This document shows positions 23,824 to 40,191 of a stretch of 53,939 nucleotides of DNA, in pieces. The stretch spans positions 1 to 53,939 of the IMG/VR virus record IMGVR_UViG_3300030419_006158, one strand, 5' to 3'. A program made the position numbers and the translations under genes. The stretch's first letter is position 1. Each line of letters starts with the position of its first letter. The notes under the pieces were generated by a model. It saw only the letters and a program-made list of their open reading frames with translations. It was not told the origin of the DNA and ran no database searches. The stretch is from a virus (lineage: Duplodnaviria > Caudoviricetes).

Positions 23824-24636
23824 ATGATTATAATACGAACAGATACAATAAGAAGAGTGTTACTATATTTCATTTTAGCTGGCACGATGTCTTACTTTGC
23901 TGGTTACATGCACGGAGAACCTATGACCCCGTCACCGACAATACAAAAGTTCAACGGGCTCTTCATGCCAATATCAGAGCAAAATTCTAATTTATATTTT
24001 TTACTTTTACCTGGCCAAGCGGTTGTGGAAGAAGATCAAAGAATAAAACTTGATGATGAAGAGTTTACTCAAGCTATAAAAGAAACTGAAAATCATAGAA
24101 TATTTCATGTAAGGTCGAGAGGAGGTATGTTAACTCATACTTGTTTAGACGCACTACGTGGTCAAAATGAATTGCGATATTTAGATCTGTCTAACAATAG
24201 ATTGATTTCTGATCTTGCTTGTAAAAAAATCGCTGAATATTTTCCAAGATTGGAGAGATTGAATCTATTTAATACTAGTATCTCAAATAAAGGCTTGATT
24301 TATCTTATGGATTTAACTAAACTTAAGCAGTTGCACCTAGCACTGACAAAGGTCACATGGGATGAAGCGAATTTATTTAGAGGTAAGATGCAAGCAATAG
24401 CAGGTAATGAAGATTTAGAGATTACAGCAGGTTATAATAAACCTTCTTTACTAAGTTACAATTTAATTAAAAGGTTAAGAGCAACATATCAAACTAATAC
24501 TTATAATGGTAGAGTTGATCCAGATTTTAAAATAGAGATTTTAGGAGGGGAAGTTAAGGAAAATAAAAAATATGATGAGACTGATAGAGCTGAAGATGAT
24601 GCTAAAAAGTCTGTATCAGGTCCAATTTTAGAATAA
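23824..24636 (+). CDS. Exported leucine-rich-repeat protein
   Basis: LRYLDLSNN, LERLNLFNTSISNKGL, LKQLHLALTKVT; N-terminal hydrophobic segment. Confidence 0.75.
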   Translation: MIIIRTDTIRRVLLYFILAGTMSYFAGYMHGEPMTPSPTIQKFNGLFMPISEQNSNLYFLLLPGQAVVEEDQRIKLDDEEFTQAIKETENHRIFHVRSRGGMLTHTCLDALRGQNELRYLDLSNNRLISDLACKKIAEYFPRLERLNLFNTSISNKGLIYLMDLTKLKQLHLALTKVTWDEANLFRGKMQAIAGNEDLEITAGYNKPSLLSYNLIKRLRATYQTNTYNGRVDPDFKIEILGGEVKENKKYDETDRAEDDAKKSVSGPILE

Positions 24637-28508: not shown

Positions 28509-29222
28509 ATGAAATACATATTGTTCTTTTTACTGTCTGTTTCTGTTGTCGCTAAGGACAATCCATACTCACTTATTAATAAAAGAAATGCCTTTGACTT
28601 AGCTGACGACTTACCACCTGCGAAGGTACTAGTTGATAAGGTTGAGATACCTAACATAGAGCTTTTCCTAACGGGAGTCACACGTTGGAGAGGAGAGACT
28701 AAAGCACACCTCTACTCTAAAGATTTACCTAACAAATACATGAGTTTAAAAGCAGGAGAACAGTTAGGTCCAATAAAGGTGTTGAGTGTATCCAGAGATG
28801 GTGTAAAGGTTATTAATAATGGTACAGAACAGGTATTAACATTCTCATCTAATAGATTAAAAACTACTATTATTGGTGCCAAGAATAAACCAACAGTTGT
28901 TAAAAAAGACAGTAAAGAGAGTAGTAGATCTAGTCGAGATAAAGAATCAAGTAAATCAACTCCTGCTCCTCCTCGTCCAAGTGTCGTGAAGGTACCTTCT
29001 AGGAATAGAGGTATTACTGATCCTAGAATGCAGTCAATGATGGAGAGGGGATTAGAGTACCTTAATAAAATAGAAGACCCAAAAAAGAAAGAAGCTATGC
29101 TTGAAAGATTAGAAAAGTTTCAAAGAGGAGATTACGATAAAGAAATTCAAGACAGGATGAAGCGATATGAAGAGTACAGGAAGAGTAGAGATAGTGGTAG
29201 AAGCAGAGAAAGGAAAAAATAA
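28509..29222 (+). CDS. Exported protein resembling verrucomicrobial type II secretion GspC/PilP-like proteins
   Basis: Signal peptide; NPY..I..RN.F.L...PP...LTGVT...SL..GE..G.I.VL.V...VKV.NNG...LTF; late promoter TAAATA upstream. Confidence 0.5.
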   Translation: MKYILFFLLSVSVVAKDNPYSLINKRNAFDLADDLPPAKVLVDKVEIPNIELFLTGVTRWRGETKAHLYSKDLPNKYMSLKAGEQLGPIKVLSVSRDGVKVINNGTEQVLTFSSNRLKTTIIGAKNKPTVVKKDSKESSRSSRDKESSKSTPAPPRPSVVKVPSRNRGITDPRMQSMMERGLEYLNKIEDPKKKEAMLERLEKFQRGDYDKEIQDRMKRYEEYRKSRDSGRSRERKK

Positions 29223-34634: not shown

Positions 34635-34789
34635 TCTTCTTTTCTTTCTTGGATGGTTAGTTTTTCTTGTTTGTTACCAAACGCGCTATGTCTTGGATTG
34701 CAGCAACATTGGCATCGCGGTTTGTTGTCCCTTATTTTTTCCGCTTTGCCTGTTTTGTAATTTATATGGTTTCTCGTTGTTCTACTCAT
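34613..34789 (-). CDS. Small Cys-containing basic protein
   Basis: MSRT.R...CQCCCNPRH...LTIQERK; start overlaps the cyclase stop. Confidence 0.55.
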   Translation of the reverse strand: MSRTTRNHINYKTGKAEKIRDNKPRCQCCCNPRHSAFGNKQEKLTIQERKEEWPKQVN

Positions 34790-36326
34790 CTGTCTTGAAC
34801 TCCGCTTTTTTAGTACCTCTCCAGTCGGGGAACTCTGTTCGACCGAATCCAGGGCCGTATGCTGTATGTATGTGTACAGTTGTACCATGCTTAACAAACA
34901 CTTGACCCCAGTCTTCAAATTTTAACCCTGGTATATCCATTTCACTTACGTTATTATATACTTGGTTTGAAATTAATATATGATCATTATCTCCAGCATC
35001 CATACACCTTTGCGCCATGTTAATGCCGTGTCCACTGACGTTTGGATTATCATTAATGTCTTTTACTGGTACTACAGGGCCAGTGTATAACCCGTTCCTT
35101 AAACCTATGTTTGCGCTTTTATAGCATTTCTTACCTACATCTACTGCACATTTAAAAGCAGCATGAACACTATTAAAAAACACTAAAGCCATTCCATCAC
35201 CAGTAGGTAAGATTATTAACTTACCTTGTCTTTGTGCTTGTTGATATCCTTCTGTTCCTTTAACAATAGCGATAAGATCATCCATTACTTTCTTTTGCAT
35301 CGCGGTACTCTTTTTGGAGTAACCTACAATATCCATAAAGTATGTATGAGACTCACAAGGACTATCATACGTAATAGAATCACCTTTTAAGTTAAATGGG
35401 TCGCCTCCCCACTTCCATTTTATAACTCTAGATCTCTTCAAGCGCTCTTCTTCTGCTTTAGCTTTATCAGCAGCTTCTTGTATGCGTGCGTTTCTTTCGT
35501 CGTGTTCTTTCTGTAGCGCATCTTCTCTAGCTCGTCTATCAGCCTTCGACTCAGTCATTTTACCCCATAGACTAGTTGGAGCTTTTTTGACATTTTGAAA
35601 TTCCATAGATTTGTATTCTTTTGGTTTATTAGAACCAACTTTAACATGACTCGTAGAGCCCGTAGGTTGTTTTTTATAGTTCCTATTAGGGTTCTTTAAA
35701 CATCCTTTAGATTTTAAATACGTTAATAGCTCTTCATAATTATTATCAGAAGCTATTTCGTACGGATTTAATTGACCGTCGAGACATGCCCCGTTCGGAT
35801 TAGCCTTATATTCAAATAGTAGCTCGCACAGTTCTTTATTGTTTAACTCTACAGCATAATGAATAGCCATCCACCCTCGATTATCTCTTCCATTAACTTT
35901 TATGGTATCATCTTCTAATAATGTTTCAATTTCATCTACATCTTCCATTTGCACGGCTTGTTGTAGGGTCATATCATTACCGTAAAATTGTCCTCCCTTG
36001 TCTTTTAAGTTAGTAAGTATTTTTAACCGATTTGGTCCCTCTGCTACATCCATTGGGTAAACTATAGGATCTTTGCTATGTTCATTTTTTTCTAGAGCTA
36101 AGTTCCAATCGCTTTGAGTTTCATTTTGTGGTGGATTACTTTTTACATTTGGTGATATTCCAGCATCTAGTATTATTTGAACGATTTTAGTCTTACTGCT
36201 ATTAGCTGCATAGTGTAGAGGGCTCCATCCTCTTTCTTTATCTAAGGATAGTATAAGCCTTTTATTTTTTACAGCAGTTTTGATGCCTTTAATGTTACCA
36301 GACCTAGCTAAAGCATGAACATCCAT
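34782..36326 (-). CDS. Ankyrin-repeat / class III nucleotide cyclase fusion
   Basis: Ankyrin repeats (GWSPLHYAA, GWMAIHYAV); cyclase motifs FMDIVGYS, PTGDGMALVF, LR.G..TGPV, G.GINMAQR, ILIS, VKHG; minus-strand TAAATA at 36334-36339. Confidence 0.88.
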   Translation of the reverse strand: MDVHALARSGNIKGIKTAVKNKRLILSLDKERGWSPLHYAANSSKTKIVQIILDAGISPNVKSNPPQNETQSDWNLALEKNEHSKDPIVYPMDVAEGPNRLKILTNLKDKGGQFYGNDMTLQQAVQMEDVDEIETLLEDDTIKVNGRDNRGWMAIHYAVELNNKELCELLFEYKANPNGACLDGQLNPYEIASDNNYEELLTYLKSKGCLKNPNRNYKKQPTGSTSHVKVGSNKPKEYKSMEFQNVKKAPTSLWGKMTESKADRRAREDALQKEHDERNARIQEAADKAKAEEERLKRSRVIKWKWGGDPFNLKGDSITYDSPCESHTYFMDIVGYSKKSTAMQKKVMDDLIAIVKGTEGYQQAQRQGKLIILPTGDGMALVFFNSVHAAFKCAVDVGKKCYKSANIGLRNGLYTGPVVPVKDINDNPNVSGHGINMAQRCMDAGDNDHILISNQVYNNVSEMDIPGLKFEDWGQVFVKHGTTVHIHTAYGPGFGRTEFPDWRGTKKAEFKTDE

Positions 36327-37341: not shown

Positions 37342-37635
37342 TTATGGCGTACTTGCGTGACAATCATAACATCTATCTTGCATTAGTTTATGATCGAGCA
37401 TCAGTTCGTGTCTTATATTCCATCTTTCGATGTCGTGTTGATCAGGTAAACTACCTGGTTCTACGTCATATTCAGCAGCGTAATAATAAATAGTAAGTTG
37501 CCGTCGGTAGTTGTGACACTCTGCCATTTGTGCGGCTTGTTTTGCTTTTGCTGAAGCTGATAGTAACATCCCTGTTAATATTGAGATTATTGTTATAGTT
37601 ACTAAAAGTTCGAGTAAGGTGTAACCTTTTCTCAT
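37342..37635 (-). CDS. Short prepilin-type protein with C-terminal CxxCH
   Basis: [12 protein letters not shown] class III signal peptide; C-terminal CYDCH. Confidence 0.8.
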
Positions 37636-38612
37636 TGCATAGGTTTCCATGTTGGATGGTGACCCCATGTATCATTCCAGTACCATCCCCAGGAATCGTA
37701 CGATTGCCCATCAATATTTCTAATATTCCAAGGTCTAAAATATCTAGATACACCACTATGAACTTTTCGCCAAGGATGATTATTAGGGTTTGGTTCAGTG
37801 GCTCTATCACTTAACCATTTTATATCTCTATTGTTAGGACTAACGAAAAGATCTCTTGTTGTTGTAGGGTTTTGTACTGATTGAGGAATAACTTTAGTAT
37901 CCTCTTCTAACCATCTTCTAAATTCCACATGAGCATCTACGAAAGAAACTACAGAGCCATAATTATGGTAAACACCAGGCCAGTCCATAGAGAATGCGCT
38001 CTCTTTTCCAGTTAAGGTAGGAGGTACTCTAAAGTTACCAGCGTTTATAGATTGTGGAGGCATTTCAATAAAAGTAAAAATAGAAGAAGGGTCTCTTACA
38101 TCATCATATGTATGATAAATTTTATGCTGAGTGTCAGCTTCGAAAGGCCAACCTGACCACCCTCCAACAAAAATATTTACGCTATAAGATCTAGGTCTTT
38201 TTTTTATAATGTTAACCCAATTAGTAGCGTCTTTAGCTTTTTCTTGCCAAACTACCGTTGACTTATCTCCGGGACATCCAAAAATCCCCATACCCGCATA
38301 AGGCTTAAGCGGTGACCAAAACAATGGCCTGTCTGTTTGACCCCAAGCTCCACTGCCACTCATGCTATCTGCAACCCAAGCCCACATACCTGTTGGTTCA
38401 GCTCTCCATGCAGACGCATAAGGAAATCTATCTTCATGGTCACCTGCAAATTCAGCATAAGCTAAATTGAGTTGGCGTTGATTGTTTATGCAGGCAGCTT
38501 GCCATCCTGTTTGTTTAGCTGATGAAAGAGCTGGTAGTAGTAATGCAGCTAGTATAGCAATGATTGCAATTACTACAAGTAGTTCGATTAAACTAAAGCC
38601 TTTCTTGAACAT
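37632..38612 (-). CDS. Prepilin-type / DUF1559 (H-X9-DG) pseudopilin-like protein
   Basis: [59 protein letters not shown]; late promoter near 38620. Confidence 0.92.
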
Positions 38613-38657: not shown

Positions 38658-38879
38658 TTACTTAGTGAGATAAGTTACTATGATAGAACAAATAACGCCC
38701 ATCACAGCACCTCCAATAGTACCAATCATTGCTATCTTGGAATTTTGAGTAGCTACTTGAAGCTCTATCTTTTTTTGATTGTCTTGTAAGCGACCTATAT
38801 CCCCATCGAGTCTATGTAACTCACTGAGTACTAACCGTCTCCACTCGGCCCAAGACCCATTTTCTTTAGGTTCATTCAT
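38658..38879 (-). CDS. Small coiled-coil plus C-terminal TM protein
   Basis: W.EW..LVL.EL.RL; C-terminal TM helix. Confidence 0.65.
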   Translation of the reverse strand: MNEPKENGSWAEWRRLVLSELHRLDGDIGRLQDNQKKIELQVATQNSKIAMIGTIGGAVMGVICSIIVTYLTK

Positions 38880-39213
38880 GCGATATAAGAGTCACTTTCT
38901 TATGTATAAGTTTACCATCACGCCGTAAGTCTGTTACTTTTACCATGTGTTTCGTGTCGTGTATCGTAATTGTTCTAGATCGTTTATTATTCGTTAAAAC
39001 ATCTATACCAAGAATAGTATTTAGACCCTTATTGTGAATTTCTTCTTTATTCACATCAAATGACCTTTGAAAATAATCGTTACACCATTTGATTCTTCCA
39101 GCCTCTGATACTAACACAATAGAATAATCAGCCTTTGTAACGTAATCTATAAAATCGTTTTCATGCAGCTCTAGCTGATGAGTTAATTTCTCTAACTTCT
39201 TTAAATTAGTCAC
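38872..39213 (-). CDS. Stand-alone PAS-like domain protein
   Basis: IVLV...GRI.WCN..F...F....EEI....L..IL. Confidence 0.6.
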   Translation of the reverse strand: MTNLKKLEKLTHQLELHENDFIDYVTKADYSIVLVSEAGRIKWCNDYFQRSFDVNKEEIHNKGLNTILGIDVLTNNKRSRTITIHDTKHMVKVTDLRRDGKLIHKKVTLISHE

Positions 39214-39822: not shown

Positions 39823-40191
39823 ATGAAGAAGACATTATTGACATTAGCCGCTATCGGCTTTTTATCAACAACTACCCATGCCGGCTTTCTTGATCATTTC
39901 GGGGCTGGTTTGAAACCTGTGCCTTATTTGAAAGTTCCTCTAGTTAAGTTAGCAGTTCCTGCTCCATCTCTTGCAGTTGGACCTAGAGCTGGAACTGAAG
40001 TAGATGGTAAAGTTTCAGGTACTGGTGCTAGTGCAGCTCTTCCATGGATTCGTGGAGGAGTTAAATGGCCTAGCTTGACTCTGGGAGCGGGAGACGCCAA
40101 GGTGACGATTGGTCCTAAGGCTGCTAAAGGAGACGCTGCTAAGAAGAAGGCTGCTGCGGCCAAAAAGAAAAAGGCTGCTAAGAAGAAGTAA
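39823..40191 (+). CDS. Secreted protein with Ala/Lys-rich tail
   Basis: Signal peptide; AAKKK repeats; TAAATA at 39809. Confidence 0.65.
   Translation: MKKTLLTLAAIGFLSTTTHAGFLDHFGAGLKPVPYLKVPLVKLAVPAPSLAVGPRAGTEVDGKVSGTGASAALPWIRGGVKWPSLTLGAGDAKVTIGPKAAKGDAAKKKAAAAKKKKAAKKK

Follow-up and report, generated by a model that had tools for sequence, protein, structure and literature searches.

A conserved CxxCH motif on a minimal phage pilin: a possible heme-bearing pseudopilin

Why would a phage encode a very small pilin-like protein that ends in the attachment motif of c-type cytochromes, and does this protein carry heme? The question arises from a sequence of 53,939 nucleotides belonging to a Caudoviricetes virus (IMG/VR record IMGVR_UViG_3300030419_006158), the whole of which was analysed and is here called the window. 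The first-pass annotation had described a pilin-like protein with a class III signal (MRKG-YTLLE, Glu at +5) and a CYDCHASTP end, coupled by an ATGA overlap to the gene of a larger pseudopilin, and all of these points were borne out. The 97-aa open reading frame has both the signal and the end; the overlap at 37632-37635 could be read directly, with the TGA of the large gene (37634-37632) sharing bases with the ATG of the small one (37635-37633); and the protein scored above cut-off against both Pfam N_methyl PF07963 (30.5 bits, cut-off 21.2) and NCBIfam TIGR02532 (28.6 bits, cut-off 16.3). The features of the locus are listed in Table 1.

Table 1 Coordinates of the mini-pilin gene, its conserved codons and the associated genes within the window.
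Feature	Position	Strand	Basis
Mini-prepilin gene, 97 aa	37342..37635	minus	ORF; N_methyl PF07963 and TIGR02532 matches; AF2 model; 62 homologues
CxxCH codons (C89-Y90-D91-C92-H93)	37357..37371	minus	C89, C92 and H93 invariant in 54/54 unique genes
Cys40 codon, alpha-1 stem	37516..37518	minus	invariant in 54/54 unique genes; aligns with C41 of the large pseudopilin
ATGA overlap, large pseudopilin stop/mini-pilin start	37632..37635	minus	direct reading of ORFs
Pseudopilin gene, 326 aa, H-X9-D(G/A) type	37632..38612	minus	N_methyl 29.8 bits; invariant C41, C113
Secreted protein, 237 aa, GspC/PilP-type HR beta-domain	28509..29222	plus	AF2 model and structural matches; 8 kb from mini-pilin

The mini-pilin frame ends at a stop codon at 37344-37342. 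A 108-aa form starting from an upstream ATG at 37668 also appears in the ORF listing; the 97-aa start is supported by the homologues without an upstream gene, which begin at the M-N-K-G-F-T-L position. The N-terminus has marks of a type IV pilin-like protein, namely a small residue at -1 (Gly, closing the leader MRKG), Y at +1 and Glu at +5 in the mature YTLLE, and a hydrophobic stretch of about 20 residues. The basic leader and the N-terminal hydrophobic helix together form a prepilin-type signal, which implies, by inference from the family's topology, a non-cytoplasmic, periplasmic C-terminus. The stem reads A-E-C40-H-N-Y-R-R-Q-L and the C-terminus C89-Y-D-C92-H93-A-S-T-P. A scan for promoters and terminators gave 22 promoter-like sites, below the shuffle mean of 28.2.

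The first-pass annotation had also assigned the pilin stem to the DUF1559 type, and this did not hold as stated, as neither pilin matched PF07596 at E ≤ 0.01. The large neighbour is instead an H-X9-D(G/A)-type pseudopilin, judged by its motif (H-x9-D-A) and by the source names of its homologues, of which we found 7867, some named 'prepilin-type processing-associated H-X9-DG protein'. Among the 120 of these homologues listed, 3 matched PF07596 and none contained CxxCH. C41, C113, D116, H216, D226 and H228 were invariant in an alignment of 51 large-pilin homologues, and the joint invariance of C41 and C113 suggests an ancestral stem-to-head disulfide in this family. The mini-pilin is 39% identical to the large pilin over about 50 N-terminal residues, with C40 aligned to C41, and has thus kept the parental stem while swapping the head for a short segment which ends in CxxCH. 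With the H-X9-DG/DUF1559 pseudopilins of Planctomycetota-Verrucomicrobiota-type bacteria it shares the alpha-1 stem C-x-N-x-[KR]-Q-L and the aligned Cys, but it is without their entire head, including the C-P-x-D and H-X9-DG motifs, and leaves PF07596 unmatched. No match to the H-X9-DG families of NCBIfam (such as TIGR04294) was found at E ≤ 0.1; the mini-pilin ends short of the place of the motif.

Just upstream of the large pilin, the minus strand encodes a small PAS-like protein (38872-39213, below Pfam cut-offs) and a 73-aa single-pass membrane protein (38658-38879). The same pair recurs in locus L033, at 87% and 76% identity.

We then asked how far the C-terminal motif is conserved. A word-indexed search returned 62 mini-pilin homologues at E ≤ 1e-3 among 63 candidates, all metagenomic and 70-126 aa long, and in their alignment C40 was invariant while H41, K88, C89, Y90, C92 and H93 were at least 90% conserved. 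When 1.84 billion representatives were searched exhaustively with HMMER, 17,553 matched at E ≤ 1e-3, though nearly always in the generic N-terminus, and just 9 matched at E ≤ 1e-10. Eight full-length relatives with 37-49% identity (P0063, P0065, P0066, P0067, P0069, P0072, P0098 and P0152) all end in C-Y-x-C-H, with the 30-40 residues preceding the motif unrelated in sequence, and the motif is retained in two remoter relatives, P0079 (as CWGCH) and P0088 (70 aa, with the middle nearly deleted), so that across the distant relatives it reads C-[YFW]-x-C-H despite the replaced middle region. In a selected alignment of 39 sequences, chosen from about 75, E+5, C40, R45, Q46, C89 and H93 were invariant, and C92 was absent from one row (P0058, which has W).

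Loci were collected by two scans. The metagenome scan, which gave 51 loci, used the stem pattern alone and was therefore unbiased towards CxxCH, while the viral-contig scan used patterns which included CxxCH and gave 9 loci, 7 of which (L001-L007) hold a mini-pilin gene. Two of the remaining candidates, L008 and L009, were rejected since their CxxCH sits inside an unrelated protein of about 510 aa. In the resulting set (the window and 58 gene-holding loci, L001-L007 and L011-L061), all 76 stem-bearing ORFs have C..CH 38-49 residues after the stem Cys. In one of these loci (L007:828-1316) the mini-pilin frame stays open further upstream, where a Cys-rich segment (CxxC ... CxxCH) precedes the pilin N-terminus; this segment may be a fused or overlapping zinc-ribbon-like element. 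Tandem mini-pilin paralogues, two or three to a locus, were found in 15 loci (L002, L012, L014, L015, L017, L020, L023-L025, L027, L028, L035 and L044-L046); one type ends in ...KCYDCHAS.P, a second in ...SC[YF]DCH.S.LT.VR and a third has a His-rich tail.

For codon analysis the 72 ORFs with a recognisable pilin N-terminus were collapsed to 54 unique genes. Loss of the His in homologues had been set beforehand as a result that would refute the heme c proposal, and H93 was invariant in 54/54 unique genes, as were C40, C89, C92 and E+5; the proposal was thus not refuted on this point. Both synonymous codons were used at each of these positions (for example TGT 27 and TGC 27 at C40, and CAC 29 and CAT 25 at H93). 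Position 90 held Y in 48 genes, F in 5 and V in 1, position 91 held 9 different residues, and H41 was retained in just 39 of the 54 genes and is gone from distant relatives. For the 12 homologues nearest to the window gene (lowest pN), pS was 0.77-0.96 and pN 0.19-0.24, with silent sites nearly saturated. This purifying selection and the fixed length of the family led us to reject a decaying fragment of the large pilin as the identity of the gene. Longer or fused forms were seen in none of 52 candidates scored, which is weak evidence.

In a control set of 148 representatives, the stem regular expression matched 12, of which 8 contain CxxCH. CxxCH occurred in 2 of the 136 representatives without the stem motif and, as both of these are the small relatives P0079 and P0088, it was found in 0 of 134 unrelated pseudopilins. 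It should be noted that the four stem-bearing representatives without CxxCH (P0073, P0074, P0086 and P0142), which have divergent C-termini, count against a heme function.

What, then, is the motif for? The best reading, which we hold tentatively, is that a host cytochrome c synthase puts heme on a pseudopilin made by the phage, and that this subunit becomes part of the type II secretion or type IV pilus machine of the host. The best explanation of the protein itself, offered with the same caution, would be a phage minor pseudopilin in which a minimal heme c module has taken the place of the globular head, and on sequence grounds the mini-pilin may be a heme-carrying pilus subunit. This reading is favoured by the invariance of CxxCH, C40 and E+5 with both synonymous codons in use and low pN relative to pS, by the absence of CxxCH from the 134 unrelated pseudopilins and the 120 large-pilin homologues, by the presence of exactly three Cys in each mini-pilin together with the retention of the motif in 37-49% identical relatives in which the middle has been replaced, and by the module context, with a pilin upstream and a coupled HR-domain protein. 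Two properties expected of a c-type cytochrome were found: CxxCH is conserved across homologues (54/54 genes; 76/76 ORFs), and the motif would be exported to the Ccm/Ccs side, to judge from the topology of the pilin family. Purified bacterial CcsBA attaches heme in vitro to a 9-mer, for which both thiols and the His were needed and the flanking helix was not (PMC8112865); as CcsBA needs only the motif, a periplasmic CxxCH would be a cytochrome c synthase substrate.

We modelled the mini-pilin with AF2 from the 39-row alignment. The model has two helices (7-53, alpha-1, and 66-91) and zero strands, with a mean pLDDT of 68, and its CxxCH is at the end of the second helix. C(i), C(i+3) and H(i+4) at a helix end is the geometry of cytochrome c. 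The antiparallel beta-sheet of an alpha-beta pilin head is absent from the model, a weak observation given that the head has a pLDDT of only 44-55; this low confidence also weighs against the heme reading. Foldseek gave no match of the model to the PDB at E ≤ 0.001, residues 54-97 gave no usable match in the ESM Atlas, and the best sequence match to a solved structure was Geobacter PilA-N (9egp_A, E 7.5e-8), over the N-terminal 55 residues only. No Pfam cytochrome family matched at E ≤ 0.01, and the family lacks a conserved Met or His that could act as distal ligand; both findings count against heme.

The same two findings fit the main alternative, a non-heme staple, which we regard as possible though less probable. 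Here C40, C89 and C92, with or without H93, would form a metal site (Zn, Cu or Fe), or C40 would form a disulfide with C89 or C92 beside a functional His; by the same assessment, the short tail would be tied to alpha-1 in place of the beta-sheet head, and the protein would be an ordinary, very small minor pseudopilin. Exactly three Cys were found in all 53 unique mature mini-pilins, and with the one invariant His a Cys3His site would use all four residues. C40 aligns with the invariant stem Cys of the large pilin, whose single invariant partner is C113, and because C40 is homologous to this probable disulfide Cys it may simply pair with C89 or C92. The spacing between C40 and CxxCH varies from 38 to 49 residues, and is 22 in P0088, which fits a tail closing back on C40. 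The type IV pilin PilJ of C. difficile reportedly has a Zn site, a precedent that counts for the staple. However, a plain disulfide leaves the invariant His and the third Cys unexplained, Cys-ligated metal sites are rare in the oxidising periplasm, and the neighbouring C92 and H93 are hardly able to ligate one tetrahedral metal ion. A periplasmic CxxCH would also meet the cytochrome c synthase, for which the motif alone is described as sufficient (PMC8112865).

Comparison with known systems bears on both explanations. The mini-pilin resembles the minor pseudopilins and pilins (GspH/I/J/K and FimU/PilV/W/X) in its class III signal, its Glu+5, its long hydrophobic alpha-1 and its place in a small pilin operon, but it differs from them in being modelled without a beta-sheet head, in its invariant CxxCH end and in being encoded by a phage; matches to the minor-pilin equivalog HMMs were confined to the N-terminus and far under the cut-offs. 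The naturally truncated PilA-N of Geobacter (geopilin domain 1) is likewise very short and mostly alpha-1, but unlike the mini-pilin it has no Cys or CxxCH. Geobacter PilA-N pairs with a separately encoded PilA-C. Class II cytochromes c (c' and c556) are helical and have a single CxxCH near the C-terminus, at the end of the last helix. This position resembles that of the mini-pilin motif, but these cytochromes have a Sec signal and about 125 aa folded as a four-helix bundle, whereas the mini-pilin has two helices and a prepilin signal, and no sequence or fold match to a class II cytochrome c was found (Pfam at E ≤ 0.01; Foldseek against the PDB). A further parallel is TfcP of Myxococcus xanthus, a noncanonical cytochrome c with a His/Cys-ligated heme encoded in a minor-pilin/PilY1 cluster (PMC8833165). 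According to its abstract, TfcP serves the type IVa pilus priming/tip complex and not electron transport (PMC8833165). The mini-pilin is similar in combining CxxCH with a further invariant Cys and in being encoded among pilin genes; TfcP, to which the abstract gives no pilin label, is a cellular periplasmic protein, whereas the mini-pilin is viral.

The wider locus indicates which host machine may be involved. The window encodes, 8 kb from the mini-pilin, a secreted protein with a beta-domain at about residues 49-113 (AF2 pLDDT about 89) followed by a charged helical C-terminus. Its N-terminus, judged by eye, carries an apparently cleavable signal sequence and not a membrane anchor, and nothing meaningful was found in Pfam even at E ≤ 1. 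The top 11 structural matches of the domain had Z scores of 6.0-8.1, with the next at 4.0, and comprised nine HR-domain chains of GspC, PulC, LspC or PilP, GspB and one Dot/Icm type IV secretion system chain; the match to 3oss_C had Z 8.1 and an rmsd of 2.6 Å, with 61 of 65 residues aligned. In Foldseek the nine GspC/PulC/LspC/PilP chains had probabilities of 0.93-1.00 and the Dot/Icm chain one of 0.84, and GspB was absent among the matches listed. HR domains bind the N0 ring of the secretin. Homologues of about 230 aa were found elsewhere (L001:10276-10950, L056:10279-10950 and others), and in all 7 loci examined the start of the HR-protein gene overlaps the mini-pilin stop as ATGA.

Module genes were counted by tblastn on 58 sequences, i.e. 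the window and 57 mini-pilin loci (L061 was missed), and these counts include the near-duplicate contigs L003/L039, L005/L006, L002/L027 and window/L011. The large pilin lies directly upstream of the mini-pilin in 30 of the 42 informative loci and does not in the other 12, and the HR-protein gene is present in 22 of the 58 sequences, in 14 of them no more than about 220 nt from the mini-pilin. The common order is the H-X9-D(G/A) pseudopilin, the CxxCH mini-pilin and the secreted HR-domain protein, joined by ATGA overlaps. From this gene order, the overlaps and the HR fold, we take the unit to be the large pseudopilin, the mini-pilin and the HR-domain protein, which points to a three-gene phage module aimed at the type II secretion or type IV pilus machine of the host. 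Among ORFs of at least about 80-90 aa, neither the window nor the flanks of six loci contained a gene for a prepilin peptidase, an assembly ATPase or a secretin, or any gene for Ccm/Ccs or heme synthesis; the lack of Ccm/Ccs and heme-synthesis genes counts against heme.

Carriage by a phage, also claimed beforehand, was supported by the virus record itself and by gene content. The window has genes for a Pam3 gp28-type holin, a LysM lysin-like protein, T5orf172, a partial ribonucleotide reductase (RNR) and a dCMP deaminase, and among the genes of related loci are those for lambda-like minor tail proteins, RNR, ThyX and Hsp20. The ESM Atlas clusters which contain the mini-pilin were 88-100% viral. 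A scan of 185,579 species genomes with strict patterns, which distant cellular members could escape, yielded no true member, and the one candidate from a cellular genome, locus L010 from a Gemmatimonadales MAG, was rejected as its match is confined to 21 residues of the stem. Neither the mini-pilin nor the large pilin had a tblastn match among GenBank phages. The mini-pilin family looks virus-restricted and marine. The named cellular relatives of the large pilin, at about 40% identity, are Verrucomicrobiota MAGs, and the nearest bacterial ESM Atlas cluster is verrucomicrobial (score 0.86, a lead only); with moderate confidence, the host phylum is probably Verrucomicrobiota.

Several other genes in the window and related loci are worthy of note. 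A minus-strand gene at 34782-36326 encodes a 514-aa protein with ankyrin repeats at its N-terminus and, at its C-terminus, a weak resemblance to adenylate/guanylate cyclases (PF00211, E 0.004, below cut-off), and an 82% identical copy lies directly after the pilin genes in L002 (L002:10953-12491) and L027. On the plus strand, 4 kb away from the CxxCH pilin, 41691-42503 matches a family like the alpha-subunit of heme-dependent oxidative N-demethylase (PF11927, E 4.9e-39); the flanks of six related loci showed no such gene. A long plus-strand run of sugar- and surface-modification genes (about 5400-28400) includes DUF6267, a methyltransferase, a sulfotransferase, several glycosyltransferases, two NAD epimerases/dehydratases, a Nol-type carbamoyltransferase, a cytidylyltransferase and cupins. 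The genes at 23824-24636 (plus strand) and L013:8064-8780 encode a secreted leucine-rich-repeat protein (about 240-270 aa; the versions from different phages share 57% identity), and in L013 and L038 this gene is near the pilin module. Encoded at 39823-40191 (plus strand) is a secreted protein of 122 aa whose tail is rich in Ala and Lys (...AAKKKAAAAKKKKAAKKK); the local composition there is unlike that of the remaining AT-rich window. In L002, a TnpB/Cas12f-like gene (L002:12598-13953; PF07282, E 1.2e-10) follows the pilin genes, some 2 kb downstream.

Under the heme-bearing pseudopilin reading, the mini-pilin would insert N-in/C-out with its C-terminus in the periplasm, and the host prepilin peptidase would cleave after G4. 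A host cytochrome c synthase (CcsBA or CcmFH) would bind heme to C89 and C92 through thioether bonds, and H93 would be the proximal ligand of the iron; the heme would pack on alpha-1, and the invariant C40 might serve as a distal thiolate ligand, as in TfcP. The holo-subunit would then be taken up, together with the co-translated large pseudopilin, into the type II secretion or type IV pilus machine of the host, and the HR-domain protein of the phage would dock on the secretin. The purpose may be to remodel or block the host machine in infection, for example to exclude further phages or to alter secretion. A redox-active subunit and a dominant-negative pilus cap, the two roles put forward in the first-pass annotation, would both be candidates.

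Heme could also be attached without any role in a filament, the protein being a membrane-anchored mini-cytochrome which taps host electron transport or a decoy for the synthase or the heme supply. We consider this unlikely. It draws on the same heme evidence as the leading explanation, and CXXCH peptides are described as inhibiting cytochrome c biogenesis in vitro (PMC8112865). At -1, 27 of the 53 unique homologues have Gly, 13 have Ser and 13 have Ala; in the 26 with Ser or Ala prepilin processing may be inefficient, which counts against the leading explanation and, through weaker cleavage, could favour this one. In 12 of the 42 informative loci the gene directly upstream of the mini-pilin is not a phage large pilin, which also fits. 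However, Glu+5 in 53/53 unique mature mini-pilins, F or Y at +1 in 53/53 and the small residue at -1 argue for selection by a peptidase and an assembly machine, and the translational coupling to a pseudopilin and to an HR protein of the secretin-binding type tells against an isolated anchor.

A still bolder reading, which we think very unlikely, is that mini-pilins are cytochrome-pilins, each with one covalent His/Cys-ligated heme, polymerised by the host machine under phage control. The tandem sets of two or three paralogues in 15 loci leave room for a multi-heme filament scaffolded by pilins. In such a short filament or tip neighbouring hemes would be within electron-tunnelling distance, a pilin-scaffolded heme wire that is equally doubtful and that, if true, would be distinct from e-pili and from OmcS-type cytochrome filaments.

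Pilins and c-type cytochromes are the two protein classes central to the microbial nanowire debate, and in searches of the full-text literature we found no description of a pilin with CxxCH or heme or of the mini-pilin viral family, and no function for H-X9-DG/DUF1559 proteins. In this family as a whole, a heme c motif is strictly conserved under selection on a minimal pilin scaffold. The finding would be considerably more remarkable if heme were shown; if the site is a metal or disulfide staple, the mini-pilins would still be the smallest conserved pilin-like design in this analysis. The three-gene module suggests that phages manipulate the type II secretion or type IV pilus machines of their marine bacterial hosts, probably Verrucomicrobiota, and it offers a functional handle on the very large uncharacterised H-X9-DG/DUF1559 family.
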